This document shows positions 5,674 to 61,263 of a stretch of 64,000 bases of DNA, one piece after another. Both the position numbers and the translations under genes were made by a program. Source of the stretch: an uncultured Chloroflexia bacterium (GTDB taxonomy: Bacteria; Chloroflexota; Limnocylindria; Limnocylindrales; CSP1-4); assembly GCA_963713285.1 (NCBI GenBank), contig CAVQLA010000008.1, positions 67,733-131,732 on the forward strand. Direction: 5' to 3'. Numbering within the stretch: the first letter of the stretch is position 1; each line of letters opens with the position of its first letter. The notes below the pieces were generated by a model. It searched no databases, had not been told where the DNA came from, and was given only the letters and a program-made list of their open reading frames with translations.

Positions 5674-6870
<1,197 letters not shown>

Positions 6871-22160: not shown

Positions 22161-23357
<1,197 letters not shown>

Positions 23358-25348: not shown

Positions 25349-26179
25349 ATGCCGCTCCGCAGCTACAAGGCCACCTCGCCCGGCCGGCGGTTCATGACCC
25401 GCTCGACGTTCGAGGAGATCACGACCCGCGAGCCGTACAAGCCGCTCCTCGAACCGATGAAGCGCGGCTCGGGCCGCAACAACCAGGGCCGTCTCACCGT
25501 CCGCCATCGCGGCGGCGGCGAGAAGCGCCACTACCGGATCATCGACTTCAAGCGCGACAAGTTCGGCGTCCCCGCGAAGGTCGCGACCGTCGAGTACGAC
25601 CCGAACCGGTCGGCCCGCATCGGGCTCCTCCACTACCGGGACGGCGAGAAGCGCTACATGCTCCTGCCGCACGGCCTCAAGGTGGGCGACGTCGTCGTCG
25701 CCGGCCCCGACGCCGAGGCCCGGGTGGGGAACGCGCTCCCGCTGGCCAACATCCCGCTCGGCACGACGATCCACAACATCGAGCTCGTGCCCGGCAAGGG
25801 CGGCCAGATCGTCCGCTCCGCGGGCGGGAGCGCCCAGCTCCTGGCCAAGGAGGGCGACTACGCGACGATCCGCCTCCCCTCGGGGGAGATGCGTCGCGTC
25901 CCCCTGCGCTGCATCGCCACGGTCGGCCAGGTCTCGAACCTGGACCACGAGAACCAGAGCCTCGGCAAGGCCGGTCGGGCTCGCCACATGGGCCTCCGCC
26001 CGGAGACCCGGGGTGTCGCGATGACGCCGCGGGACCATCCCCACGGCGGCGGCGAGGGCAAGTCCCCGACGGGCATGCCCCCCAAGACCCCGTGGGGCAA
26101 GCCCGCGATGGGCTATCGCACCGCGAAGGGCAAGCGGCCGAACCGGCTGGTTGTCCGGTCGCGGCACCGCAAGTCGTAA
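25349..26179 (+). CDS. rplB: 50S ribosomal protein L2
   Basis: L2 family (…GGGEGK…). Confidence 0.95.
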
Positions 26180-41563: not shown

Positions 41564-42502
41564 ATGTCCGAGCTCCTCGAGTCGATCGCCGGCCAGATCC
41601 GGCTGGCCACGCTCGTCGACATCGGGCTGACCGCCGTCGTCATCTACTGGGTCTTCAGCCTCATCCGCGGGACTCGGGCGGTTCGGCTCGTGATCGGCGT
41701 CAGCGTGATCCTCGCGATCTACGCGGTGGCCCAGGCCGCCGGCCTGCGGCTGTTCACCCAGCTGCTCCAGGCGGGCGCGGTGGTGGGCCTCTTCGCCTTG
41801 GTCGTCGTCTTCCAGCCCGAGCTGCGGCGCGGCCTCGAGCGGCTCGGCCGGGTGGGGTCGTTCGCGTGGCTGCTCTCGCCGGCCGACCAGCGGACGGCGG
41901 ATCGCGTCGCATCCACGGTTGCCCGGGCCGCGACCCGCCTCGCCGCGGCACGCGCCGGAGCGCTGGTCGTCATCGAGCGCGAGACCGGCCTGGAGGAGAT
42001 CGCCGAGACCGGCGTGATGATCCACGGCGACCTCACCTCGGACCTGCTCGAGGCGCTGTTCATCCCGCGCGGCGCCCTCCACGACGGCGCCGTCATCGTG
42101 CGCGGCGAGACGATCGTGGCCGCCGGGGCGCTCCTGCCGCTCGCCGAGACCACCCTGCAGGCCGAACGCTACGGGACGCGGCATCGGGCCGCGCTCGGCA
42201 TCACCGAGCAGACGGATGCGGTCGTCGTCGTCGTCTCGGAGGAGACCGGCCAGGCCAGCCTCGTCGAGCGGGCGCGGATCCGGCGCAACCTCGACGAGGC
42301 GCAGCTCACGCGGGCGCTCACGGCGCTCCTCCGGCCGGAGCGCCGGGGCGACGCGCTCCGTGACCGCCTCGGCCGGCCGGGTTCCTCGGCGGGTGGCCTG
42401 CGCCGCGCCGCGCTCGGCAACCTGGGGCGCACCGCGCGCGACGCGGGCGCGGACGAACCCCGCGACGACGTTCCCGGCGCGGCGGCCGGGGCGGGGCGCT
42501 GA
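41564..42502 (+). CDS. cdaA: diadenylate cyclase CdaA (DisA_N/DAC domain)
   Basis: Three N-terminal TM helices. DAC motifs DGAVIV and TRHRAALG. Followed by cdaR and glmM as in Firmicutes. Confidence 0.75.
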   Translation: MSELLESIAGQIRLATLVDIGLTAVVIYWVFSLIRGTRAVRLVIGVSVILAIYAVAQAAGLRLFTQLLQAGAVVGLFALVVVFQPELRRGLERLGRVGSFAWLLSPADQRTADRVASTVARAATRLAAARAGALVVIERETGLEEIAETGVMIHGDLTSDLLEALFIPRGALHDGAVIVRGETIVAAGALLPLAETTLQAERYGTRHRAALGITEQTDAVVVVVSEETGQASLVERARIRRNLDEAQLTRALTALLRPERRGDALRDRLGRPGSSAGGLRRAALGNLGRTARDAGADEPRDDVPGAAAGAGR

Positions 42503-42507
42503 CCTCG

Positions 42508-43788
42508 ATGCGCTCCGTCGTCGCGTTCGTGGTCCGCAACTGGCCGCTCAAGATCGCGGCCATCCTGCTCGCGACGCTGCTCTACGCCGGGCTCATCGTG
42601 TCGGCGTCGGCGGAGACCTTCCAGGGCCGGGTCCCGATCGAGATCCTCAACCAGCCGGAGGAGACGTACGTCCTGGGCGACCTGCCGGACGTGACGACGG
42701 TCCGCTATCTCGCGCTCGGCGCGGATCGCCCCCAGGTCACCTCGTCGACGTTCACGGCGACGGTCGACCTGTCGGACGCCCGCGCCGTGGCAGGCGCCCC
42801 GCCGCAGAGCGTCCCGGTGATCGTCCAGTCGATCGACCCGGCGATCCAAGTGATCGACTTCTCGCCGTCCCGCGTGGCCGTCCGCCTGGACCCGCTGGTC
42901 ACGAGCGAGGTCCCCGTGCGCGTCGACCTGGGCGTGGTCCCGCCCGGCCTCGACGTGCGCGAGCCGGTGGTCGCGCCCGACACCGTCCGGGTCTCCGGGC
43001 CGGAATCGGCGGTCCGGTTCGTGACGGCCGCCCAGGCGCGGGTGCGCATCGATCCGTCGGGCCTCGACGTCAACGAGACCGTCGGCCTGGAGCCGATCGA
43101 CGCCAGCGGCGAGGTCGTCGACGGCGTCGACGTCCAGCCCAGCTCGGCGCGCGTGACGATCCAGATCGGCAGCCAGCTGGCCACCCGGACGCTCCCCGTC
43201 AACGCCGTCGTGACGGGCACGCCGGACCCGGCCGTGGAGATCACCGGCGTCGACGTCCAGCCGGTGCTCGTCACCGTGGAGGGCGAGGCCGACGCGCTGG
43301 CGGGCGTCGTCTCGATCGACACCCGGCCGGTGTCGGTCTCGGGGGCGACCACCGACATCGACACGCAGGTGGGCCTCGCGCTGCCCGAGGGCGTCGCGGC
43401 CCTCGGTGTCGACCAGGTGCAGGTGGTCATCACGATCCGCCCGCGCTCCGGCACGCGCACCTTCGAGGCCGGCCTCGAGATCGTCAACGCGAACCCCGGC
43501 CTGGAGTACCGTCCCGCGGTGGACCGCGTGCTGCTGACCGTCGGCGGCACGCTGGAGGCCCTCGACGCGGTGGACCCGACCCGCATCGTCGCCCGCCTCG
43601 ACGTGGCCGGGCTCGGTCCGGGCACGAGCGCGGTGGCGGTGACGGTCCAGCTCCCGGCCGGCGTCAGCCTCGTCTCCGCGTCTCCCCAGGAGGTGTCCGT
43701 GACCGCGACGCCCGTCGCCACGCCCACGCCGGCCCCCACGTCGCAGGCCGCACCCGTCGAATCGCCGACGCCCAGCCTTGCGCCGTGA
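42508..43788 (+). CDS. cdaR: CdaA regulator CdaR (YbbR-like repeat protein)
   Basis: N-terminal TM anchor then repeated YbbR-like beta domains. Position between cdaA and glmM. Confidence 0.65.
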   Translation: MRSVVAFVVRNWPLKIAAILLATLLYAGLIVSASAETFQGRVPIEILNQPEETYVLGDLPDVTTVRYLALGADRPQVTSSTFTATVDLSDARAVAGAPPQSVPVIVQSIDPAIQVIDFSPSRVAVRLDPLVTSEVPVRVDLGVVPPGLDVREPVVAPDTVRVSGPESAVRFVTAAQARVRIDPSGLDVNETVGLEPIDASGEVVDGVDVQPSSARVTIQIGSQLATRTLPVNAVVTGTPDPAVEITGVDVQPVLVTVEGEADALAGVVSIDTRPVSVSGATTDIDTQVGLALPEGVAALGVDQVQVVITIRPRSGTRTFEAGLEIVNANPGLEYRPAVDRVLLTVGGTLEALDAVDPTRIVARLDVAGLGPGTSAVAVTVQLPAGVSLVSASPQEVSVTATPVATPTPAPTSQAAPVESPTPSLAP

Positions 43789-43790
43789 CG

Positions 43791-45122
43791 ATGGGACGCC
43801 TCTTCGGGACGGACGGGATCCGCGGCGTAGCCAACGTCGACCTCCGGGCGCCGCTGGCGTACGCGCTCGGGCGCGCGGTGGCCCACGAGCTCGCCGGGGC
43901 GGGCGGCGCCCTGGTGGTCGGCCGGGACACCCGGCGCTCGGGCGGCATGCTCGTGGCGTCGATCGCCGCGGGCGCGGCCAGCCTGGGAAGCGACGTCCAC
44001 GTGGTGGGGGTCCTCCCGACGCCGGCGCTCGCCTTCCTTGCCGGATCGGGGGCGTTCGCCGCCGGCGTGATGGTGTCCGCCTCCCACAACCCGGCCGACG
44101 ACAACGGCCTGAAGGTGCTCGACAGCCGGGGCCTCAAGCTCGACGAGCCCGCGGAGGACGCCCTGGAGCAGCTCATCTGGCGCGCCGAGGAGCTCGGCGG
44201 GCCGCGGAACGCCGGGATCGGCCGCCTCGTCGACGCCTCCGACCTCGCCGATCTCTACCGTGAGGACCGTGTCCGCCTCGCCCGGTCCACGCCGTGCGAT
44301 CTCCACATCGTCCTCGACTGCGCCAACGGGGCCGGCGGCGTGACGGCGCCGGAGATCCTCGCGGCCACCGGCGCCCGGATCGACGTGATCCACAACGCGC
44401 CCGACGGCGTGAACATCAACGCCGGCTGCGGGGCCACGGCCCCGGCATCCCTCGCCGCCGAGGTCGTCGCCCGCGGCGCCGACCTGGGCTTTGCCCTCGA
44501 CGGCGATGCCGACCGGCTGGTCGTCGTAGACCGGCACGGTCACGTGGTGGACGGCGACCAGCTTCTCGGCGTCTGCGCCCTCGACCGCCTGGCGCGCGCG
44601 GCGCTCCCGGGCGGGATCCTCGTCGTGACGGTCCTCTCGAACGGCGGTCTCGAGGCGGCCCTCCGGGCGGCCGGCGGCCACCTCGTCCGCACCCCGGTGG
44701 GCGACAAGTACATCCTCGAGGGGATGCAGGTGACCGGTGCCGGGCTCGGCGGCGAGAAGAGCGGCCACGTCATCGTGCTCGAGCATGCGAGCTCGGGCGA
44801 CGGCGTCGTGACCGGCCTCGAGCTGCTGGGGATCCTGGGCCGCGCGGGCCGGCCGATCGACGAGCTGGCGACGGCGATCCCGCTCTTCCCCCAGGAGCAG
44901 CGCGCCGTCCCGGCCCGCCGCAAGGAGCAGTGGGAGGCGGACCCGGTCCTCGGGGCGGCAATCGAGGAGGCGCGCGAGCGGCTCGGGTCGGGCGGCCGCG
45001 TCCTCGTCCGGCCGTCGGGAACAGAGCCGGCCCTGCGGATCATGGTCGAGGGAGCGGACGCCGCCGCGGTGGCCGAGCTGGCCGAGATGCTCGCTGCCGT
45101 GGCGGGCGAGCGCCTACACTAG
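43791..45122 (+). CDS. glmM: phosphoglucosamine mutase
   Basis: MGRLFGTDGIRG... Active-site SASHNPADDNG. GDGDADR Mg site. The track ORF 42216..45122 is an upstream read-through. Confidence 0.9.
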   Translation: MGRLFGTDGIRGVANVDLRAPLAYALGRAVAHELAGAGGALVVGRDTRRSGGMLVASIAAGAASLGSDVHVVGVLPTPALAFLAGSGAFAAGVMVSASHNPADDNGLKVLDSRGLKLDEPAEDALEQLIWRAEELGGPRNAGIGRLVDASDLADLYREDRVRLARSTPCDLHIVLDCANGAGGVTAPEILAATGARIDVIHNAPDGVNINAGCGATAPASLAAEVVARGADLGFALDGDADRLVVVDRHGHVVDGDQLLGVCALDRLARAALPGGILVVTVLSNGGLEAALRAAGGHLVRTPVGDKYILEGMQVTGAGLGGEKSGHVIVLEHASSGDGVVTGLELLGILGRAGRPIDELATAIPLFPQEQRAVPARRKEQWEADPVLGAAIEEARERLGSGGRVLVRPSGTEPALRIMVEGADAAAVAELAEMLAAVAGERLH

Positions 45123-47603: not shown

Positions 47604-48588
47604 GCTCGAGCAGCTCGACGAGCGCCTCGCCGCGGCGCTCCTGCCGCCCCGGCCCGCCCGCGGCCACAAGGGCACGTTCGGCAAGCTGCTCGTCGTGGCC
47701 GGGTCCCTCGACTACGCCGGCGCCGCGCTCCTCGTCTGCCAGGCCGCCGGGCGCGCCGGCGCCGGCCTCGTGACGCTGGCGGTGCCCGAGTCGCTCCAGC
47801 CGCTGTTCGCGGCCAAGGTCGTGGAGGCGACGACGATGCCGCTCGACGAGGACGACGTCGAGGAGGTCGACCCGGAGCCGGCGCTGGCGCGCATCCTCGA
47901 CCACGACCACGACGCGCTGGTCATCGGGCCCGGCCTGCGGCCATCGCTCGCAACCGGCGAGCTGGTGCGGGGCGTCCTCGGCCCGGCGGCCGGCGACGAC
48001 GCCTGCCCGGCGGTCGTCGACGCCGAGGCACTGCGGACCCTGGCGGCGGAGGACGGGTGGTGGGAGGGCGTCCGCCGCCGGTCGGTCCTGACGCCCCACG
48101 CGGGGGAGTTCGCCCGCCTGCGGGCCGCCTCAGGCATCTCGCCCGGTGCCGACGGCGATCTCAACGAGGACGACGAGGCGCGCCGCGAGGCGGCCTGCGA
48201 CGCCGCGGTGACCTGGGGTCACGTCGTCGTGCTCAAGGGGGCCCGCACGGTGATCGCCGCGCCGGACGGAAGCGCGGCAGGCGCCCCGTTCGAGAACCCC
48301 GGGCTGGCCACGGGCGGGACCGGCGACGTGCTGTCCGGCACGATCGGGGCGCTCCTCGCGCAGGGCCTCGGCCCCTATGCCGCGGCGCGCCTGGGCGTGT
48401 ACCTCCACGGCATGGCCGGGGACGCGGCGCGGGCGCGGATCGGCGACGCGGGGCTCCTCGCCGGGGACCTCCCCCTCGAGATCGCCCTGGCGCGCCGGCG
48501 CCTGGCCGCGGACGCGGAGCGGCGGGCCGGCGGGCGTGTCGGCTTCCGCGAATCGGCCGCCGGGACACAGCCGACCGACTCCGCGTGA
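47596..48588 (+). CDS. nnrD: ADP-dependent NAD(P)H-hydrate dehydratase (YjeF C-terminal domain)
   Basis: KGTFGKLLVVAGS..., GPGLR..., TPHAGEFARL, GGTGDVLSG motifs. Confidence 0.85.
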   Translation: MTELEQLDERLAAALLPPRPARGHKGTFGKLLVVAGSLDYAGAALLVCQAAGRAGAGLVTLAVPESLQPLFAAKVVEATTMPLDEDDVEEVDPEPALARILDHDHDALVIGPGLRPSLATGELVRGVLGPAAGDDACPAVVDAEALRTLAAEDGWWEGVRRRSVLTPHAGEFARLRAASGISPGADGDLNEDDEARREAACDAAVTWGHVVVLKGARTVIAAPDGSAAGAPFENPGLATGGTGDVLSGTIGALLAQGLGPYAAARLGVYLHGMAGDAARARIGDAGLLAGDLPLEIALARRRLAADAERRAGGRVGFRESAAGTQPTDSA

Positions 48589-49928
48589 CCGGGTCCGACC
48601 GGGGCGTCCCCGGGGTCGAGACGCGCCTCCGCCTGGCCGGCCTGCCGGCCCTGCCCCGCACGGCGTGGCTGGAGATCGACCTCGACCGCCTGGCCGGCAA
48701 CGTGGCCGCCATCCGCGCGGCGCTTCCGCGGGGCGTCACCCTCGAGGTGGTGGTGAAGGCCGATGCCTACGGCCACGGCGCCGTCCCGATCGCGTGGGCG
48801 GCCCTTGCGGCGGGTGCCCGCGGCCTCTGCGTGGCGACCCTGGACGAGGCCCTGGAGATCCGGCAGGCCGGCATCGAGGCGCCCATGCTCGTCCTCTTCC
48901 CGATCCCCCCGGCGGCCGCGCCCGTGGCCGCCCGTGCCGGGGTCGCGATCGCCGCGGGCGACGCCGGCCTCCTCGCCGATGCCCTCGCGGCGTATGCCGC
49001 CGCCCGCCGGCGCGCCCGCCGGGAGCTGCCGGCCCTCGGCATCCAGCTCGCGCTCGAGACGGGGCTGGGCCGGGACGGCCTCGCGCCGGAGGAGGCCGTC
49101 GCGGCTGCTCGTGGCGTGGCGGCCACCCCCGGGGCCGTGCTCCTGGGTGCCTGGTCCCACCTCCAGGCTCCCGCGGACCGGGCCCGCACCGACGACCAGG
49201 TGGATCGCTTCACGGCGGCCCTCGCGGCGCTCGGCAAGGCGGGTGTCGTCGTGGCCCATCGCCACGTCCTGGCCTCGGGCGGGCTCCTGGCGGTGGAGCG
49301 GCTCGTCGGCGGCGAGCGTCCCGTCTTCGACGGTCTGCGTGTCGGGCTGGCCGCCTACGGCATCGTGCCCGAGGGCCTGCCGATCGGCGCCGCGGCGTCG
49401 GGCATCCACGCGGGCCTCCGGCCGATCCTGTCGTTGCGAGCGCGCCCGATCCGGGTCGCCGACCTGCCGCCCGGCACGGGCATCAGCTACGGGCCGAGCT
49501 TCATCACGACCCGCCCGAGCCGGATCGCCACGCTGCCGGTCGGCTACGCGGACGGGTGGGCGCGGATCCTCTCGAACCGGGCGACGGCCCTCGTGCGCGG
49601 CGTCCGTGTCCCGCTCGTCGGCAACGTGGCCATGGACGCCGTCATGGCGGACGTCACGGACGTCCCCGGATCCCCGGTCACGGAGGCCGACGAGTTCGTC
49701 CTCATCGGGCAGCAGGGGGACGACGAGATCACCGCGGCAGAGGTGGCGCAGGAGCGCACCACGATCAGCTGGGAGGTGGTCGCGGCGATGGCCCGGCGCC
49801 TGCCCCGGGTGTACACTGCGCGGGCCGTGGCGGTCGGAATCCGCACGCTCACCGAGGATCGGGGGACATGGCGCGGCTTGCGCTCTGGAACGGCGACATC
49901 TGCGACCTCGAGGTCGACGCGATCGTGA
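48585..49928 (+). CDS. alr: alanine racemase (GTGA overlap with nnrD); the C-terminus may be artificially long
   Basis: PLP-site motif VVKADAYGHG. Overlaps the downstream macro-domain gene by 61 nt. Confidence 0.85.
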   Translation: MTGSDRGVPGVETRLRLAGLPALPRTAWLEIDLDRLAGNVAAIRAALPRGVTLEVVVKADAYGHGAVPIAWAALAAGARGLCVATLDEALEIRQAGIEAPMLVLFPIPPAAAPVAARAGVAIAAGDAGLLADALAAYAAARRRARRELPALGIQLALETGLGRDGLAPEEAVAAARGVAATPGAVLLGAWSHLQAPADRARTDDQVDRFTAALAALGKAGVVVAHRHVLASGGLLAVERLVGGERPVFDGLRVGLAAYGIVPEGLPIGAAASGIHAGLRPILSLRARPIRVADLPPGTGISYGPSFITTRPSRIATLPVGYADGWARILSNRATALVRGVRVPLVGNVAMDAVMADVTDVPGSPVTEADEFVLIGQQGDDEITAAEVAQERTTISWEVVAAMARRLPRVYTARAVAVGIRTLTEDRGTWRGLRSGTATSATSRSTRS

Positions 49929-50401
49929 ACCCCGCGAACGTCACGCTCTGGATGTCCACGGGCGTCGCCGGGGCGATCAAGCGCCGAGGAGGGGACGCGA
50001 TCGAGTTCGCCGCCGTCCGCCAGGCCCCCGTCCAGCTGGGCGGCGCCGTCGTCACCGATGCGGGGAGCCTCGCCGCCCGCTGGGTGATCCATGCCGTCTC
50101 CCTCGACCACCAGCGCCGGACCAGCGCGGAGGCGATCGCGGCGGCCGTCCGCAGCGCCTTCACCCGCGCCCGCGAGCTGGGCGTGGAGACGCTCGCCATC
50201 CCGGCGCTCGGCACCGGCGTCGGGGGCTTCCCCCTGGACGAGGCGGCCCGCATCACGGTCGCCACGGTGCGGGCCGAGGTCGGCCGGCTGCCGCGGCTCC
50301 ACACGGTGACGTTCGCCCTGCGCGGCGCCGCCGCCTACGAGGCCTTCCGGGCCGCGCTCGCGGCCCCCGCCCCGGCGCCGTCGATCGGTGGCCCGGTGTG
50401 A
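49868..50401 (+). CDS. stand-alone macro-domain protein (MacroD/YmdB-like ADP-ribose or O-acetyl-ADP-ribose hydrolase family)
   Basis: NGDICDLEVDAIVNPANVTLWMSTGVAGAIKRRGG..., HAVSL..., AIPALGTGVGGFP match macro-domain signatures. RBS GGGGGAC. Confidence 0.75.
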   Translation: MARLALWNGDICDLEVDAIVNPANVTLWMSTGVAGAIKRRGGDAIEFAAVRQAPVQLGGAVVTDAGSLAARWVIHAVSLDHQRRTSAEAIAAAVRSAFTRARELGVETLAIPALGTGVGGFPLDEAARITVATVRAEVGRLPRLHTVTFALRGAAAYEAFRAALAAPAPAPSIGGPV

Positions 50402-50694
50402 CCGGGCCTGCCGGCGAGATCCCGACCCCCGAGCAGCGCGCCGAGCTCGTCGAGGAGGTCGCCCGCGAGATCCTGCTCCACGGCATGACCGGCCCGGCGA
50501 TGCTCTTCCTGCAGGCCAGCATGCCCGACGGGATGGTGCCGGGCAGCGCGATGCTCTTCTTCGATCCCGTGCTGCGCCGGCTCTTCGGTGACGCGAACAC
50601 GCCCGCATCTGCGATCCTCGCCGACGAGCTCGGGATCGAGCAGCTCATCGATCGGCTCGAGGAGCTCGACGAGGACGTGAGCTGGGACGCGTGA
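50398..50694 (+). CDS. hypothetical 98-aa protein (no recognisable domain)
   Basis: GTG overlaps the macro stop (GTGTGA). Stop overlaps the start of the next gene. Acidic C-terminus (EELDEDVSWDA). Confidence 0.4.
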   Translation: MTGPAGEIPTPEQRAELVEEVAREILLHGMTGPAMLFLQASMPDGMVPGSAMLFFDPVLRRLFGDANTPASAILADELGIEQLIDRLEELDEDVSWDA

Positions 50695-52367
50695 CCCAGG
50701 CGGCCCCCCCGGAGGGCGCGACCGGGGCGGCGCCGACGGCCGCGCTGGACCTGCGGGTCGGCGCCTTCGCGACCCTGGACCGGGGCACGGCCACCTGCGC
50801 GGCCGCGCTCGTCGGGCGGGTTGCCGGACGCCGGCGCCTCCTCGTCGCGGCGGCCGTGCCCGCGGGAGCCGATCCGGACGAGCTGGTCGCGGTCCTCTCC
50901 GCCAGGGTCCGGGTCGCCGATCGGGCGCTCGCCGACGAGCTCGGGCTCGCGCCGGACGACGCCGGCTCCGACGTCGGCGCCCGGGGCGAGCCCCCGGCGG
51001 CGCTTCCCCGGATCCAGGCAATCGGCAGCCCTGCCCCCCTCGCGGCCGTCGTGGCGGCGACGGAGGAGACCCGCCGCCGCCTCGACGCCGACGCCAGCGC
51101 CGCCGGCTGGCGCACCGTCGGCGCCAGCGCGGAGCGTGACGACCCGCTGGCAGTGACGCGCCTCGCCACGCGCCCCGACGTCTCCACCCTCATCGTCGGG
51201 ACGGGCGACCCTGCCAGCGTGGACGAGCGGGACCTCCTCGGGGAGCTGGTTGCGCTCGCCGCGGGGATCGCGGAGCGCCGACAGGACCTGGGCGTCGTCC
51301 TCGTCGGCGCCGTCGCGTCCCGCGCCGCGGACTTCCCCCTCGCGACCGCCGTGCTGCTGGTGCCCAGGCCGCACGGCGACCCCGCCACGGACCTCCGGGG
51401 GATCCTCGCCGCCCACCGGGCGGGCCCGGGCGACCCACGCCAGGCGTTGGCCGCCGTGACCGGGACCATCGCCGAGGTGCTCGACCTCCGCGTGGAGCTT
51501 CTCGACATCGGCATGAGCGGCGCGCTGCGGGCGCGGGCGGAGCCCGGCCCGCGGGCCGGGGACCCCGCCCGGGTCGTCGCCGTGGAGGTGCCGGATGCCG
51601 TCCTGGGGTTGGCCGACGACGACGCCGCCCTCGACCGCGTCGAGGCGTGGGCGACGCTCGGCATCGATCGCGCGCGCCTGCGGGACCGGCTCGCGGAGCT
51701 TCGCCTGAGCCCGTGGGTCGACCTCGGCGGCGAGGGGGCGCTGCTGCGCGCCGCGGCGCTGCGCGCCGCCCTCGAACGCCTCGACGCCGTCACCGCGGCG
51801 GAGCTGGGCGGGCCGGCCCCCGACCTGGTGGTCCTGGCCGGTGGGTCCTGGTCGGCGATCCCGGCCCCGGCGGCCCTCCTCGTCCTGGCGGATGGCCTGC
51901 GCCGGCCGGGTGTCGTCCAGGTCGCTCTCGACCCGGCTCGCCTCCTCGCCCCGCTCGGGACGATCGAGGACGACGATGAGCGCCGCGCGCTGCTCGGCGA
52001 CCTGGTCGGCGATGCGCTCGTGCCGCTCGGCACGCTCGCGGTCGCCCGCGGGATCCGCGGCGGTCGCGCGGCCGGCCATCTCCGGCTCGTCGCCCGCGAG
52101 GCGCCCGTCGACCTCGCCCTTGCCGCGGGCCGGCTCGGCCTCGTCGACCTGCCTCCCGGAGAGGCCGGAGAGGCGAGCCTTGCCTTCCGCTCGCCGGTCG
52201 ACCTCGGCGTACGAGGCCGGCGCTTCGCCGTCCCCGCGACCGGCGGCCTCGCCGGCCTCGTCGTGGATCTGCGCGACATCCCGCTGCGGCTCCCGGAGCG
52301 CGCGGACGAGCGCCGGGACCTCCTCGCCGGCTGGGAGGCTGCGCTCTGGCCGGAGCGCGACCGGTGA
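50691..52367 (+). CDS. hypothetical 558-aa Ala/Leu/Arg-rich protein; weak resemblance to ASKHA (actin/Hsp70-like ATPase) motifs
   Basis: LDRGTATCAAALVG resembles a phosphate-1 motif. STLIVGTGDPAS and DLVVLAGGSWSAIPAP resemble phosphate-2/adenosine motifs. Translationally coupled on both sides. Confidence 0.45.
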   Translation: MTQAAPPEGATGAAPTAALDLRVGAFATLDRGTATCAAALVGRVAGRRRLLVAAAVPAGADPDELVAVLSARVRVADRALADELGLAPDDAGSDVGARGEPPAALPRIQAIGSPAPLAAVVAATEETRRRLDADASAAGWRTVGASAERDDPLAVTRLATRPDVSTLIVGTGDPASVDERDLLGELVALAAGIAERRQDLGVVLVGAVASRAADFPLATAVLLVPRPHGDPATDLRGILAAHRAGPGDPRQALAAVTGTIAEVLDLRVELLDIGMSGALRARAEPGPRAGDPARVVAVEVPDAVLGLADDDAALDRVEAWATLGIDRARLRDRLAELRLSPWVDLGGEGALLRAAALRAALERLDAVTAAELGGPAPDLVVLAGGSWSAIPAPAALLVLADGLRRPGVVQVALDPARLLAPLGTIEDDDERRALLGDLVGDALVPLGTLAVARGIRGGRAAGHLRLVAREAPVDLALAAGRLGLVDLPPGEAGEASLAFRSPVDLGVRGRRFAVPATGGLAGLVVDLRDIPLRLPERADERRDLLAGWEAALWPERDR

Positions 52368-53347
52368 ACGGCCTCGCGCTCGTGCCCACGCGCCGGCTGC
52401 TCGTGGAGCGGCCGCGCGTGGTCGTCCCCCTGCTGCCCGGCGACCGGGTCGTCGTCACCATCGGAGCGTCGGTCGTCCCCGGCGACCTGCTGGCGGAGCG
52501 CGTTCGCGATCCGCGCCTCGTCGAGACCGGCGACGGCGACAGTGGTTCCGGGACCACGCATCCGGGCTCCTGGGTCGCCGCGGAAGCCGGCCGGCGCGGC
52601 ACCGCGCCGGCCGGCGAGCTTCTCTTCGAGCACGGGGGGCGGCGTCGCATCGCGACGGGCCCGCATCCCGATCTCGTCGCAGCCCCGGGCGCGGGCAGGG
52701 TGACGGCGATCCACCCGGGTGTCGAGATCGTGCTCGAGCTCGAGGGTGTCGGCATCCCCGGGTGCGAGCTGCTCGGCGATCCTGGGCACGGCCGCCTGGC
52801 GTTGCTGCCGGGCGACGGGGACGGGCGCGTCCCGCTCGACGTGGCTCATGCCGGCGCGATCGTCGTCTTCCCGGGGCGCGCGGACGCCGAGACGCTCACC
52901 CGCGCCCGGGCCATGGGCATCGCCGGGGCGGTGGTGCCGGCGCTCGCCGAGCGCGATCGGCGCGACGTCGTGGCCTCCGAGGCGCGCCAGCGGGCCGGCC
53001 TCCATCGCCTCGCCCCCTTCCCGGTGCTCGTCGTCGACGGCTACCTGCGTCGCCCCCTGGCGAGCCCCGTGCGCGAGATCCTCGCCGGCCTCGCGGGGGT
53101 CGAGGTCGGGCTCGTGGGTGGGCCGCCCCTGCTGATCGCGCCCGTGGCCGAGGGCGAGGTCGCCCGACCGGACGTGGAGCTCGTGCGGGTGCGGGGCGGC
53201 TCCGAGGTGGGTCGCGAGGGCCGGTTCCTGGGCCTCGCCGGCCCCCGGCGCCTGCCGGGTGGCGTGGTCGCCGAGGCGGGCCGCGTGCACCTCGACGACG
53301 GCCGCGACGTCGTCATCGCGCTCGGTGACCTCGAGCGCTTCGTCTAA
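52364..53347 (+). CDS. hypothetical 327-aa protein (no recognisable domain)
   Basis: GTGA overlap with the previous gene. Gly/Val/Pro-rich. Followed by a hairpin, then tsaE. Confidence 0.4.
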   Translation: MNGLALVPTRRLLVERPRVVVPLLPGDRVVVTIGASVVPGDLLAERVRDPRLVETGDGDSGSGTTHPGSWVAAEAGRRGTAPAGELLFEHGGRRRIATGPHPDLVAAPGAGRVTAIHPGVEIVLELEGVGIPGCELLGDPGHGRLALLPGDGDGRVPLDVAHAGAIVVFPGRADAETLTRARAMGIAGAVVPALAERDRRDVVASEARQRAGLHRLAPFPVLVVDGYLRRPLASPVREILAGLAGVEVGLVGGPPLLIAPVAEGEVARPDVELVRVRGGSEVGREGRFLGLAGPRRLPGGVVAEAGRVHLDDGRDVVIALGDLERFV

Positions 53348-53429: not shown

Positions 53430-53900
53430 GTGACACCGCCCTCCGCCGCCGTCCGGCGGACCAGCCCCTCGGCCGCCGCGACGCGCGCCCTCGGCGTGCG
53501 CCTCGGCGCAGCCGCCGCCGCCGGCGACGTGATCGCCCTGGTGGGTCCGCTCGGCGCCGGCAAGACCGAGCTGGCGCGCGGGATCGCGCGGGGCCTCGAC
53601 GTCGAGGAGCCGATCACGTCCCCGACCTTCATCCTGGTCGCCGAGCACCCCGGGCGCGCGACGCTCTTCCACGTCGACTGCTACCGCCTCGCCGGTGCGG
53701 CCGACGCCCTGGCCGCGGGGATCCTCGACGAGCGCGCGGCGGAGGGCGTCACCGTCGTCGAGTGGGCCGACCGGATCGGCGCGGCCCTGCCGCCGGGACG
53801 CCTGGAGATCGTGATCGACGGCGCCGGCGATGAGCCCCGCACGCTCGACCTGCGGGCGACGGACGCCCGCCACGCGCGCCTGCTGGAGGCCGTGGCGTGA
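53430..53900 (+). CDS. tsaE: tRNA threonylcarbamoyladenosine biosynthesis protein TsaE
   Basis: Walker A GPLGAGKT. TsaE/YjeE family. Confidence 0.85.
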   Translation: MTPPSAAVRRTSPSAAATRALGVRLGAAAAAGDVIALVGPLGAGKTELARGIARGLDVEEPITSPTFILVAEHPGRATLFHVDCYRLAGAADALAAGILDERAAEGVTVVEWADRIGAALPPGRLEIVIDGAGDEPRTLDLRATDARHARLLEAVA

Positions 53901-58704: not shown

Positions 58705-58775
58705 GGCCGCACCTTCAGTCCGATCGATACTTCGTGGAGCTCCGACTACTGCAGCTTCGACCTGTGGAGCGATCC
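58705..58775 (+). pseudogene. relic of the 3' end of a gene paralogous to 59707-60141, left upstream of the first lipoprotein copy
   Basis: ttcgtggagctccgactactgcagcttcgacctgtggagcgatccatga aligns with the last 48 nt of the 59707-60141 gene (…ADYRSFDLWSDP*). The upstream reading frame is destroyed. Confidence 0.4.
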
Positions 58776-59342
58776 ATGAGCACTGCTCGAACCCTTCGTC
58801 TGGCTGCAGGTCTGGCACTCCTCGCTGCGTTGGTGGTCGGCTGCGTCGCGCCCGGTGCGAGCCCGACGCCGGTGCCCTCGCCCGCAGGCTCGGCCACGGC
58901 CGCGCCGTCGCTGGCGACGACCCCGGCCGCCAGCCCCACGCCCGATCTGCGGCCCGTCCCCCTCCCGCCCGGTGGCATCTACTCCGGAGAGGTCGTGGAC
59001 CCGGCCCTCGCCACCCTGCCGCTCGAGGAGGCGCTTGCGATCGGCCGGGCCGTCCCGCCGCTTGCTCCGGAGAACAACTGGATCGGGACGAACCCCGTCG
59101 CCCGCCTGATGACCCTCACCAACAGCCACCCGGAGGACGGCTTCGGGCCGCTCGTCGCCTGGGTGATCGTGACGGACGACGCCGCGCCCTTCGGCGGGAC
59201 CGGCCTTCCCACGACGAGCTCGCCGCCGCCGTACAACGGCACGCTCTCCTGGACCATCGTCGGGATGGACGGCAACGTCCTGGACCACGTTCAGGTCGGA
59301 TACTTCGCGCCGAACAGCCCCCCGCCGTTGCCGCGCGACTGA
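58776..59342 (+). CDS. predicted lipoprotein (copy 1), Pro/Ala/Ser/Thr linker plus globular domain
   Basis: Signal peptide with lipobox L-V-V-G-C. Paralogue at 60138..60704. Confidence 0.6.
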   Translation: MSTARTLRLAAGLALLAALVVGCVAPGASPTPVPSPAGSATAAPSLATTPAASPTPDLRPVPLPPGGIYSGEVVDPALATLPLEEALAIGRAVPPLAPENNWIGTNPVARLMTLTNSHPEDGFGPLVAWVIVTDDAAPFGGTGLPTTSSPPPYNGTLSWTIVGMDGNVLDHVQVGYFAPNSPPPLPRD

Positions 59343-59406
59343 CCCGCCGCGGGCCGGCCGATCGGCCCTTGACCGGGGGTATCGTCGGCGCGACGATGTC
59401 GACCCG

Positions 59407-59691
59407 ATGGTGCTCCGATCGGCGCTCCTCGCCCTCGCCGCCGTCCTGGCCCTGCTGGTCAGCCCCCGGGCAGCGCGGGCGGACGACTGCCTCGACGAGG
59501 CGACCCACCTCTTCGTCGGTGGTCACGAGGGTGCTCTCATCTCGACGAGCACGGGCGTGGCGGCCGATGCGGTGCCCAGGAACCCGACGCTCTGCACGCG
59601 CCAGGCCGGGCAGCCGCTCAGCGCCTACGAGAGCGCGTCAGCGGCCTGGGCGATGATCTACAGCACGGCCGATCCCTTCTACTACCACTAG
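59407..59691 (+). CDS. small secreted protein (94 aa, 2 Cys), hypothetical
   Basis: Signal peptide MVLRSALLALAAVLALLVSPRAARA with an AxA cleavage site. No known domain. Confidence 0.5.
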   Translation: MVLRSALLALAAVLALLVSPRAARADDCLDEATHLFVGGHEGALISTSTGVAADAVPRNPTLCTRQAGQPLSAYESASAAWAMIYSTADPFYYH

Positions 59692-59706
59692 GTCGGGTGG
59701 GCGAGA

Positions 59707-60141
59707 GTGCGTGGCGAGACCGCGGCGGTCTGGTTCTCGGAGTGGAACGACGGCTCCACTCCGACGACACGCAAGTCAACGTACTCTCCAACGTGGGGCA
59801 CCCGGTATCGCCTGGTGGTGCGATACACCACGCTCTGGAACAGGTACGTCCTGCTCGACTCGGACGGGTCCATGGTCTGGAACGCCCCCGACGACCCAAC
59901 CAGCCACTCGTGGTATCCGACCGACGCCACGTACGCAGCCGAGACCTGGAACCACGGGGACCGGACCCCCGGCACCTCCTCGCTCAAGGCGCGCCTTGAC
60001 ACCCTCCGCTGGTACGACGAGAACGGCGACATCGTCTACGCCTACATCCCGTCTGTTGACCGCTTCAACGACTACTCGTCGACCTACCACGCCTCGTGGG
60101 GTGCCGACTACCGCAGCTTCGACCTGTGGAGCGATCCATGA
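59707..60141 (+). CDS. hypothetical 144-aa Trp/Tyr/Asn/Thr-rich protein, lower GC than surroundings
   Basis: GTG start after GGGTGGGCGAGAG. ATGA overlap with lipoprotein copy 2. Rich in W/Y/N/T/S/D. No signal peptide. Confidence 0.5.
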   Translation: MRGETAAVWFSEWNDGSTPTTRKSTYSPTWGTRYRLVVRYTTLWNRYVLLDSDGSMVWNAPDDPTSHSWYPTDATYAAETWNHGDRTPGTSSLKARLDTLRWYDENGDIVYAYIPSVDRFNDYSSTYHASWGADYRSFDLWSDP

Positions 60142-60704
60142 TCACCTCCAGCACCCTCCGGCTCGCCACCGGCCTGGCGCTCCTCAGCGCCCTCCTCGCC
60201 GGGTGCGTGGCGCCGGCTGCGAGCCCGACGCCGGTGCCCTCGCCCGCAGGCTCGGCCACGGCCGCGCCGTCGCTGGCGACGACCCCGGCCGCCAGCCCCA
60301 CGCCCGATCTGCGGCCCGTCCCCCTCCCGCCCGGTGGCATCTACTCCGGAGAGGTCGTGGACCCGGCCCTCGCCACCCTGCCGCTCGAGGAGGCGCTTGC
60401 GATCGGCCGGGCCGTCCCGCCGCTTGCCCCGGAGAACAACTGGGTCGGAACGAACCCGGTCGCGCGCCTGATGACCCTCACCAACAGCCACCCGGAGGAC
60501 GGCTTCGGGCCGCTGCTTGCGTGGGTGATCGTGACGGACGACGCGCCGCCCTTCCGTGGCACCGGGCTCCCGACGACGAGCTCGCCCCCGCCGTACCTCG
60601 GCACGCTCTCCTGGACGATCGTCGGCATGGACGGCACCCTCCTCGACCAGGTCCAGGGGCGCTACTTCGTGCCGAACAGCCCGCCGCCGCTGCCGCGGGA
60701 CTGA
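60138..60704 (+). CDS. predicted lipoprotein (copy 2)
   Basis: Signal peptide with lipobox L-L-A-G-C. The 5' half is about 270 nt identical to copy 1 and the 3' half is diverged. Confidence 0.6.
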   Translation: MITSSTLRLATGLALLSALLAGCVAPAASPTPVPSPAGSATAAPSLATTPAASPTPDLRPVPLPPGGIYSGEVVDPALATLPLEEALAIGRAVPPLAPENNWVGTNPVARLMTLTNSHPEDGFGPLLAWVIVTDDAPPFRGTGLPTTSSPPPYLGTLSWTIVGMDGTLLDQVQGRYFVPNSPPPLPRD

Positions 60705-60712
60705 CTGCGCCC

Positions 60713-60765
60713 GGGCGTCTCGCGACGCCCGTCGGTGTCGGAGGGCCGCGACGCCGACCGTCGCG
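60713..60765 (+). terminator. two tandem GC-rich hairpins (GGGCGTC-tcgc-GACGCCC and CGCGACG-ccgac-CGTCGCG) after the lipoprotein cassette
   Basis: Perfect inverted repeats read directly. No U-tract, as is common in high-GC genomes. Confidence 0.45.
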
Positions 60766-61263
60766 CGGCAAGGGACGTTGTGGCCGGGGTACGGGTGCGC
60801 CCCTGCTCACGGCCGCGCCAGGGCCAACGGCAACCCGGGGAGTGGGGCGGCGTGACGGGCGCCGACGGCGGCCATACCGGGTCTCGCGCCAGTGAGGCTG
60901 GCGGGGACGGCGGCGTCCGTGCTCACGTCGCCCCCGGAAGTCGCGGTTCGACCGGCGACGTGAGCGTGCAGACCACCGATCCTGCCAGTGCGGCTGGCAT
61001 CGACCCGCGCACGGAGCCTGAGGTGCCCGTGGCCCTGGCAGTCCGGGCGCAATGCCAGCCCGGCTGGCGCGATGCCGAGTTCCGCGTCCCTCGGCGTCGA
61101 TGTGTCCCTGCGGCCCCCACGAGCGCCCGTCGGTTGACGAACCGGCAGGCGCGCCCCTACGATCCCGGCACCACATGACAGCCGAACCAGCAACGCCGGA
61201 CGACCGTCGCCCGGACCCCGAGCCCATCGCGCTCGCGGGTCGCCCCGTCCGCACCGCCCCGCG

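Follow-up and report, generated by a model that had tools for sequence, protein, structure and literature searches.

The locus described here lies in a window of 64,000 nucleotides (nt), the whole stretch of DNA that was analysed, from an uncultured Chloroflexota bacterium of the class Limnocylindria (GCA_963713285.1, contig CAVQLA010000008.1). The junction between alr and tsaE was filled by four + strand genes at the exact coordinates 49868-53347, encoding proteins of 177, 98, 558 and 327 amino acids (aa). The first is called macro here and the others o98, o558 and o327, the last also Y. The region is a vertically inherited, class-specific housekeeping operon segment of Limnocylindria, with a predicted ASKHA-fold protein (o558) and its partner Y at its core. 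The genes of the slot and their anchors were as follows.

48585 to 49928, + strand: alr (alanine racemase), upstream anchor of the slot, outside the module; start at 48585 or 48660 uncertain
49868 to 50401, + strand: macro gene, 177 aa
50398 to 50694, + strand: o98, 98 aa
50691 to 52367, + strand: o558, 558 aa
52364 to 53347, + strand: o327 (Y), 327 aa
53348 to 53429, no strand: GC-rich spacer of 82 nt between o327 and tsaE, the sole non-overlapping junction of the stretch
53430 to 53900, + strand: tsaE, downstream anchor, outside the module (Pfam TsaE, E value 1.9e-32)

The GC content of the window was approximately 78%, which produced long open reading frames (ORFs) in all six frames. A plot of GC content by codon position together with the ORF list showed one coding frame per position and agreed with exactly four + strand genes, and the third-position GC content (GC3) of their frames was 0.92-0.96. 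Direct reading of the sequence showed that alr, with its stop codon at 49926-49928, overlapped macro by 61 nt, an overlap that was kept in the near-clade loci described below, and that 4-nt GTGA overlaps were present at macro/o98, o98/o558 and o558/o327. The four genes, their overlaps and their position between alr and tsaE, as given in a preliminary description of this DNA, were therefore all borne out by the frame plot, the ORF list and the junction reads. The spacer before tsaE may be an operon boundary because it was the only junction without overlap in the stretch; no consensus promoter, terminator or Rfam family was found in its 82 nt.

Orthologues of all four genes in the same order were present in 43 genome loci and in dozens of metagenome loci. 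Searches with o558 and o327 produced hundreds of homologues each, which were unnamed or 'hypothetical' and had no precomputed Pfam domain. Comparison with three orthologous loci showed that the differences in the four genes pile up at third codon positions. The ratios of nonsynonymous to synonymous substitution (dN/dS) were 0.18-0.25 for macro, 0.14-0.19 for o98, 0.21-0.39 for o558 and 0.20-0.27 for o327, compared with 0.24-0.25 for alr and 0.22-0.23 for tsaE. All four genes are under purifying selection, much like alr and tsaE. Overall, it is highly probable that the genes are real and that their folds and families are as assigned below.

A total of about 130 related loci were found, all in Limnocylindria/Chloroflexota. 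The scan of species-representative genomes produced 43 loci, all from Chloroflexota metagenome-assembled genomes (MAGs) labelled Limnocylindrales/Limnocylindria or 'uncultured Chloroflexia', and the order alr-macro-o98-o558-o327-tsaE-tsaB-rimI-tsaD was seen in nearly all of them with the overlapping junctions preserved. Y was immediately followed by tsaE in 58 of 58 loci. Look-ups of divergent ASKHA homologues and a metagenome scan seeded with Y defined five forms of the module, all located between (nnr-)alr and tsaE; T1-T4 denote four membrane proteins.

Form A: macro-small-T1-T2-T3-T4-ASKHA-Y (L051, L052, L054, L092, L112, L116, L119, L129, L132 and many partial loci)
Form A': form A minus macro (L044)
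Form B: macro-small-ASKHA-Y (the window, most near-clade loci and L050)
Form B': small-ASKHA-Y (L007, L010, L012, L031, L037, L049)
Form C: ASKHA-Y alone (L046, L047)

The ASKHA tree split into a near clade with forms B and B', which included the window, and a far clade with forms A, A' and C. The macro and small proteins were found in both clades and T1-T4 in one sub-clade only. The window carries a reduced four-gene form, and the sister clade has the four membrane proteins inside the module. T1 was a bitopic DUF6754 protein, T2 had six transmembrane helices, T3 was bitopic with a soluble domain of about 200 aa and T4 had six to seven transmembrane helices. In most far-clade loci (for example at 3112-6004 in L044 and 5990-9004 in L051), their genes followed that of the small protein and preceded the ASKHA gene, and the junctions were tight or overlapped. 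No family was matched beyond DUF6754 for T1, and no paper on T1-T4 was found. Homologues of T1-T4 were absent from the window and from the near-clade loci across 873 kb that covered the surroundings of this slot only. On the midpoint-rooted tree, a single gain of T1-T4 was as parsimonious as loss. A mobile insertion was rejected, as slot and order were the same across two deep clades and the composition was like that of the flanks.

In one locus (L050, 1-2755), nnr was directly followed by macro-small-ASKHA-Y with no alr in the slot, so the link between module and alr is not absolute. In addition, frameshifted, fused or split ORFs were seen across alr, macro, the ASKHA gene, Y and tsaD in loci of long-read MAGs (L012, L014, L017, L033, L034, L041, L042 and L053). 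Assembly indel errors are a likelier cause than pseudogenes, and gene calls in these loci need care.

No family could be assigned directly to o98, o558 or o327 with Pfam, NCBIfam or PADLOC, and PDB sequence-profile searches with the three families gave nothing significant; for o558, neither Pfam nor NCBIfam produced a match at E ≤ 1. The AlphaFold model of o558, built on 31 homologues, had a mean predicted local distance difference test score (pLDDT) of 86 and a predicted template modelling score (pTM) of 0.86. Foldseek comparison of this model with the PDB returned ASKHA proteins only, which were PilM, Hsp70/DnaK, glycerol kinase, acetate kinase, FtsA, Ppx/GppA and activases, at E values of about 1e-5 and with low TM-scores that indicated distant similarity. 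The model thus predicts an ASKHA fold with two RNase-H-like lobes for o558. The DSSP pattern further suggests that lobe I contains a flavodoxin-like insert and that the protein closes with a beta domain and, after it, an amphipathic helix; this conserved helix at the C-terminal end contained Trp. Three nucleotide-site motifs were located.

50775 to 50795, + strand: ASKHA phosphate-1 motif L29-D30-R-G32-T-A-T35 of o558; D30 and G32 (nearly) invariant among the 31 homologues
51504 to 51521, + strand: ASKHA phosphate-2-like motif D272-I-G274-M-S-G277 of o558; G274 and G277 invariant
51822 to 51845, + strand: ASKHA adenosine motif D378-L-V-V-L-A-G384-G385 of o558; D378, L379, G384 and G385 invariant

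The phosphate-1 motif aligned with a DxGS.WTK motif in the clade whose members match Pfam 'MutL', the acidic residue and Gly of the phosphate-2-like motif were conserved in both clades, and the adenosine motif aligned with DL[LV]IG.GR of the far clade. An exhaustive profile search with o558 retrieved 927 representatives at 50% identity, of which the most distant full-length ones matched Pfam PF13941 'MutL' (GlmL family). One of these (P0368) was retrieved at an E value of 2e-31 and scored 86.5 bits with PF13941 against a cut-off of 27. Alignment of the window subfamily with the MutL-positive sister subfamily by hhalign gave a probability of 100% and an E value of 1.1e-39 over 508 columns. Sister-clade orthologues, in MAGs of Limnocylindria or Chloroflexota, were named 'glutamate mutase L' by NCBI. 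From these alignments o558 appears to lie, as a strongly diverged member, within the GlmL/MutL branch of ASKHA proteins and is not demonstrably a GlmL equivalent, its membership being transitive only. The ASKHA motifs that had been noticed in the 558-aa protein therefore stand, with a predicted fold and conserved motifs behind them, but the protein is not without a family, since it falls in a divergent GlmL/MutL branch whose sister orthologues are already annotated automatically.

The genes of GlmL/MutL proteins (PF13941; TIGR01319, NF040745) accompany those of coenzyme-B12-dependent glutamate mutase and related aminomutases, and the proteins are presumed to be reactivating chaperones. o558 shares with them the ASKHA fold and the phosphate-1, phosphate-2 and adenosine motifs, and full-length homologues of its sister clade pass the Pfam threshold. 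However, it exceeded the 450 positions of the Pfam model by about 100 aa and carried an additional conserved beta domain at its C-terminus, it had an obligate partner Y that is undescribed for GlmL, and neither glutamate mutase (glmS/mutS, glmE) nor another B12 enzyme was encoded nearby. With proteins of the FtsA/PilM/EutJ type only the fold was alike. Identity was 12-17% with no sequence-profile relationship, no FtsA, PilM or MreB Pfam match was obtained for o558, and o558 differed from these proteins in its flavodoxin-like insert, its extra C-terminal domain and its alr/tsaE context without ftsZ/ftsQ or pilNOPQ.

Y has three domains, a barrel-sandwich hybrid (lipoyl/RnfC-N/NqrA-like) at the N-terminus, a swiveling beta/beta/alpha domain in the middle and a KOW/SH3-like domain at the C-terminus, and is predicted to be soluble. 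Sub-threshold Pfam matches agreed across Y orthologues: the N-terminus matched RPOC_hybrid, RnfC_N and Biotin_lipoyl, and the C-terminus matched KOW. The following block was the most conserved.

52874 to 52936, + strand: most conserved block of Y, from G171 through E176 to V191, in the swiveling domain

This block, G171-RADAETLTRARAMGIAGAVV-191, was nearly invariant family-wide, and residues E176, L178, R180, A181, R182, G185 and G188 were invariant in both clades. In an unaided alignment it seems to resemble the phospho-His loop of phosphoenolpyruvate (PEP)-utilising enzymes, with Glu replacing His. In comparison with the N-terminal region of NqrA/RnfC, Y had no flavin mononucleotide (FMN) or Fe-S motifs, and no Rnf/Nqr membrane subunits were detected. 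Set beside the swiveling domains of RraA or PEP-utilising enzymes, Y was without phospho-His. A KOW-like domain at the C-terminus and a constant pairing with an ASKHA protein set Y apart from both groups. In the metagenome scan seeded with Y, the ASKHA gene was directly upstream of Y in 47 of 48 loci, with the 4-nt overlap in essentially every locus. The exception (L102) was a 2.9-kb contig with Y truncated at residue 79 and is probably an assembly chimera or a rearrangement. o558 and Y are thus an invariant, translationally coupled core pair.

The small protein o98, which usually precedes this pair, was soluble with an acidic C-terminus and a conserved core, RGL..PA..FL.A.RP...A..F.P..R.LFG...L.D, and it aligned with the 80-96-aa first small gene of the module in both clades and in every lineage that possessed one. 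No Pfam, NCBIfam, PADLOC or PDB match was found for o98, and no transmembrane helix was predicted in any of the four window proteins. As had been stated earlier for o98 and o327, no curated family of Pfam or NCBIfam could be assigned to either.

The first gene matched Pfam Macro PF01661 with 98.2 bits against a cut-off of 22 (E value 4e-28, profile positions 1-117 of 118). The closest PDB sequence was 2DX6 (Thermus TTHA0132, E value 5e-29), followed by the macro domains of PARP14, MacroD and macroH2A. These matches, which agree with the macro domain read earlier from the sequence, indicate a stand-alone macro-domain protein, with a predicted ADP-ribose-binding or hydrolase fold of the TTHA0132 type. 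Its score was below every NCBIfam equivalog cut-off (best NF001664, 119.5 against 200 bits; DarG, 40.6 against 250), so that these models place it in no functional subtype, be it O-acetyl-ADP-ribose deacetylase, protein-ADP-ribose hydrolase or DarG antitoxin. The protein shared a clear Macro domain with TTHA0132, MacroD, YmdB and AF1521, aligned end to end with TTHA0132 and carried the NxAN...GVAGAI and GTGVGG loops of known stand-alone macro proteins. It differed from TTHA0132, MacroD, YmdB and AF1521 in its first glycine-rich loop, S-T-G-V-A-G, and in its position at the head of an ASKHA module, which is undescribed for those proteins.

Macro was present in approximately 58 of 67 informative loci (about 87%) in both clades, by a hand tally of genome and metagenome locus look-ups, so the earlier statement that it usually travels with the other three genes was correct. 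It was not always present, however, being absent from nine loci (L007, L010, L012, L031, L037, L044, L046, L047 and L049), which answers the question of whether the 558- and 327-aa proteins always occur with a macro domain. L010 kept a macro remnant of 44 codons, and L007 and L010 nested among macro-containing relatives on the ASKHA tree; the absences in these two loci are therefore secondary losses. Overall, macro is an accessory, often co-inherited and dispensable gene and not the heart of the module, because it was cleanly lost in at least nine loci while the other genes persisted.

The flanking genes, identified with Pfam, were ordered cdaA-cdaR-glmM-glmS-acpS-nnr-alr before the slot and tsaE-tsaB-rimI-tsaD-rsmA-ispE-ridA after it, with glmU further downstream. 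The alr product matched Ala_racemase_N (E value 4.8e-45) and Ala_racemase_C (E value 4.9e-39). Gene calling across the whole window showed that the slot was within one co-directional block with tuf, rpoB- and rpoC-sized genes, ribosomal-protein-sized genes and glmMS. Other damage-control genes in this block were nnr and ridA. The genes cdaA (cyclic di-AMP cyclase, DAC domain), cdaR (YbbR repeats) and glmM were directly upstream of glmS at 41564-45122; this order is the Firmicutes-type arrangement, found here in a Chloroflexota genome.

Other features of the window were observed outside the slot. A stretch of about 2.5 kb between ridA and glmU (58705-61263) was missing from related genomes, in which glmU was at most about 200 nt after ridA. 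It contained ORFs of 156 aa and 202 aa without a Pfam match, the 202-aa one with a lipoprotein-like N-terminus, and a 300-nt direct repeat (58732-59031 and 60094-60393) with 90% identity and a spacing of 1362 nt. The stretch looks like a strain-specific insertion with partial tandem duplication. Two EF-Tu-like genes of 398 aa each, at 5674-6870 and 22161-23357, were identical at 1195 of 1197 nt, which is consistent with gene conversion between duplicates. Finally, ARAGORN called an 84-nt tRNA-Gly(gcc) at 25919-26002 on the - strand that was unreported by Rfam and lay antisense within a strongly coding + strand ORF (25349-26179); this call is probably a false positive.

The explanation favoured as a whole, put forward tentatively and at somewhat less than even probability, is a genuine class-specific operon segment with a reactivase-like machine of the ASKHA protein and Y. 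o558 would bind and hydrolyse ATP at the conserved ASKHA site and, together with the swiveling domain of Y, would work as a conformational machine of the chaperone or 'reactivase' type on a client encoded outside the module. The macro protein would serve separately in the housekeeping of ADP-ribose metabolites or in de-ADP-ribosylation, beside the repair genes nnr and ridA. To our knowledge, an Hsp70-like ASKHA ATPase occurs together with both a swiveling domain and a flavodoxin-like element in just one characterised group of systems, the reactivases of B12-dependent dehydratases. GlmL is presumed to act likewise for glutamate mutase. The ATP-driven reactivase-like machine is favoured because of this parts list and the presumed role of GlmL.

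The alpha subunit of glycerol and diol dehydratase reactivases consists of an Hsp70-like ATPase domain with insert, linker and swiveling domains, and it works with a small beta subunit through ATP-driven subunit swapping (PMC7674605). ATP hydrolysis frees the small subunit from the swiveling domain, after which the damaged cofactor is exchanged (PMC7674605). Compared with DdrAB/GdrAB (PDB 2D0O, 1NBW), the swivel of the module is on a separate polypeptide, fused to barrel-sandwich-hybrid and KOW-like domains, and the flavodoxin-like element is an insert of the ATPase instead of a separate beta subunit. There was also no detectable sequence similarity between the module and DdrAB/GdrAB, and dehydratase genes were absent from all loci. 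The comparison does not extend to a resemblance of o98 to DdrB.

Several results weigh against a reactivase. No adenosylcobalamin enzyme or other obvious client was found within 8-10 kb in more than 130 loci or in the 64-kb window, and the flanks of the module contained no glutamate mutase or B12-enzyme domains, the neighbours being alr and tsaE instead. The best structural neighbours of o558 were FtsA and PilM, and no reactivase was among them. The four membrane proteins interleaved in the sister clade hint at a membrane-associated role that a reactivase leaves unexplained. The family link is also distant, as the window o558 itself had no direct Pfam or NCBIfam match and the sister-clade proteins reached 41.5 and 38.7 with the NCBIfam GlmL models, far short of the respective cut-offs of 204 and 475, and the reactivase role of GlmL is itself inferred in the literature rather than demonstrated. 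Finally, the Lys of the DxGSxWTK phosphate-1 motif was lost in the clade of the window, so ATPase activity of o558 is not assured. The reactivase or chaperone mechanism is therefore proposed as possible and somewhat doubtful, given that no client is nearby, that FtsA and PilM are the structural neighbours, that T1-T4 are interleaved and that the phosphate-1 Lys is lost.

The soluble proteins could alternatively be the cytoplasmic module of a membrane or envelope machine, with o558 as a nucleotide-dependent scaffold like FtsA, PilM or MreB. o558 would dock on T1-T4 in the sister clade, the partners in the near clade would be encoded elsewhere or lost, and Y and o98 would be adaptors. T1-T4 between the small protein and the ASKHA gene in most far-clade loci point in this direction, as do the neighbourhood rich in cell-wall precursor genes (cdaA-cdaR-glmM-glmS, alr, ispE and glmU), the similarities of o558 to FtsA/PilM and of Y to NqrA/RnfC, and the amphipathic Trp-containing helix of o558, which might be a membrane-targeting helix. 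However, the sequence of o558 groups with GlmL/MutL and not with FtsA, PilM or MreB, all four window proteins are predicted to be soluble, and T1-T4 homologues were missing from the window and from every near-clade locus in the surroundings of the slot (873 kb). Two far-clade loci (L046 and L047) carried the ASKHA-Y pair alone, and a gain of T1-T4 explains the tree as parsimoniously as a loss. A membrane machine is thus considered rather unlikely.

A wider proposal, judged unlikely, is that ASKHA-Y together with o98 is an undescribed class-wide housekeeping machine. It might reactivate enzymes other than B12 enzymes, for example through repair or cofactor exchange in damaged pyridoxal phosphate (PLP) enzymes like the Alr encoded just upstream, or it might drive a new membrane complex of four subunits, T1-T4, that the sister clade has kept. 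Damage of Alr by 2-aminoacrylate has been documented in vivo (PMC9127364), and ridA was in the same gene block as alr and the module.

The pair might instead be an ATP-dependent enzyme of small-molecule metabolism. A metabolite would be phosphorylated or activated by o558, and Y would contribute a swiveling domain that moves as a carrier or lid, much as the phospho-His domain does in PEP-utilising enzymes. Because of the neighbouring genes, the substrate could come from amino-sugar or D-amino-acid metabolism. GlmL proteins have relatives among the ASKHA enzymes in the hydantoinase/oxoprolinase branch. The ASKHA kinases among the structural matches (glycerol, acetate, N-acetylglucosamine, pantothenate and levoglucosan kinases), the acidic, Arg-rich loop of the Y swiveling domain that was invariant in both clades and the metabolic operon context are consistent with such an enzyme, but no Hydantoinase_A, Hydantoinase_B or kinase family was matched in Pfam or NCBIfam, no substrate-binding signature was identified, and the phospho-His position is apparently Glu in the unaided alignment. 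An enzyme of this kind would also leave the membrane proteins of the sister clade unexplained and is considered improbable.

The preliminary description had suggested, as a possibility, a module for ADP-ribosylation reversal or nucleotide signalling. In such a module macro would act as effector or sensor, with the ATPase and the two other proteins as its partners. The presence of macro at the head of about 87% of the informative loci in both deep clades indicates an old association, and the 4-nt macro/o98 overlap, a weak match to the macro domain of the DarG antitoxin (40.6-40.8 bits) and the cyclic di-AMP cyclase gene cdaA 8 kb upstream could be added in its favour. However, macro was cleanly deleted several times while o98, the ASKHA protein and Y persisted under selection, and forms C and A' lacked it. 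The module contained no ADP-ribosyltransferase, DarT, sirtuin, TIR, cyclase or other effector or signalling enzyme, and the cdaA-cdaR-glmM genes are a well-known independent operon. PADLOC returned nothing for o98, o558, o327 or the sister-clade T1-T4 and Y, and only the weak macro/DarG match. The proposal was not supported and is regarded as very unlikely; the core housekeeping position throughout the whole class further argues against a defence or toxin-antitoxin island. A defence island or a DarTG toxin-antitoxin system was rejected, as partner genes were absent and the module was fixed in a core region.

Finally, the reading of the 98-, 558- and 327-aa ORFs as non-coding artefacts of a 78% GC genome, which the long ORFs in six frames of the region might suggest, was excluded with negligible residual probability by the GC3 of 0.92-0.96 in exactly these frames, homologues by the hundred (the presence of conserved homologues being the check named for it earlier), dN/dS of 0.14-0.39, confident AlphaFold2 folds and conserved synteny.

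No paper on the module was found in the literature on GlmL/ASKHA, DUF6754 and Limnocylindria, in agreement with its earlier description as a candidate for an undescribed module, and the three-domain architecture of Y, the small protein and the T1-T4 set are without a described counterpart in the searched libraries and literature. Conserved hypothetical operons are common in uncultured lineages, and the present value of the module is that of a well-delimited experimental target rather than a mechanistic discovery. The label 'glutamate mutase L' on the sister-clade proteins is misleading, as it names a family and no glutamate mutase is present. A GlmL-type ASKHA protein has evidently been drawn here into a new module specific to this class, in which this ASKHA branch has a fixed new partner, and sometimes four membrane proteins, for another job. 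Limnocylindria are abundant, uncultured Chloroflexota of soil and freshwater, and the location of the module in their most conserved housekeeping block, under selection class-wide, indicates that it probably does something basic for these cells. If a reactivase of enzymes other than B12 enzymes or the engine of a membrane complex were true, the module would represent a new functional class in the GlmL/ASKHA radiation together with a new partner architecture of barrel-sandwich-hybrid, swivel and KOW-like domains. Overall, its function, once worked out, would widen the known range of reactivase-like ATPases and could reveal a cofactor-repair or envelope system.

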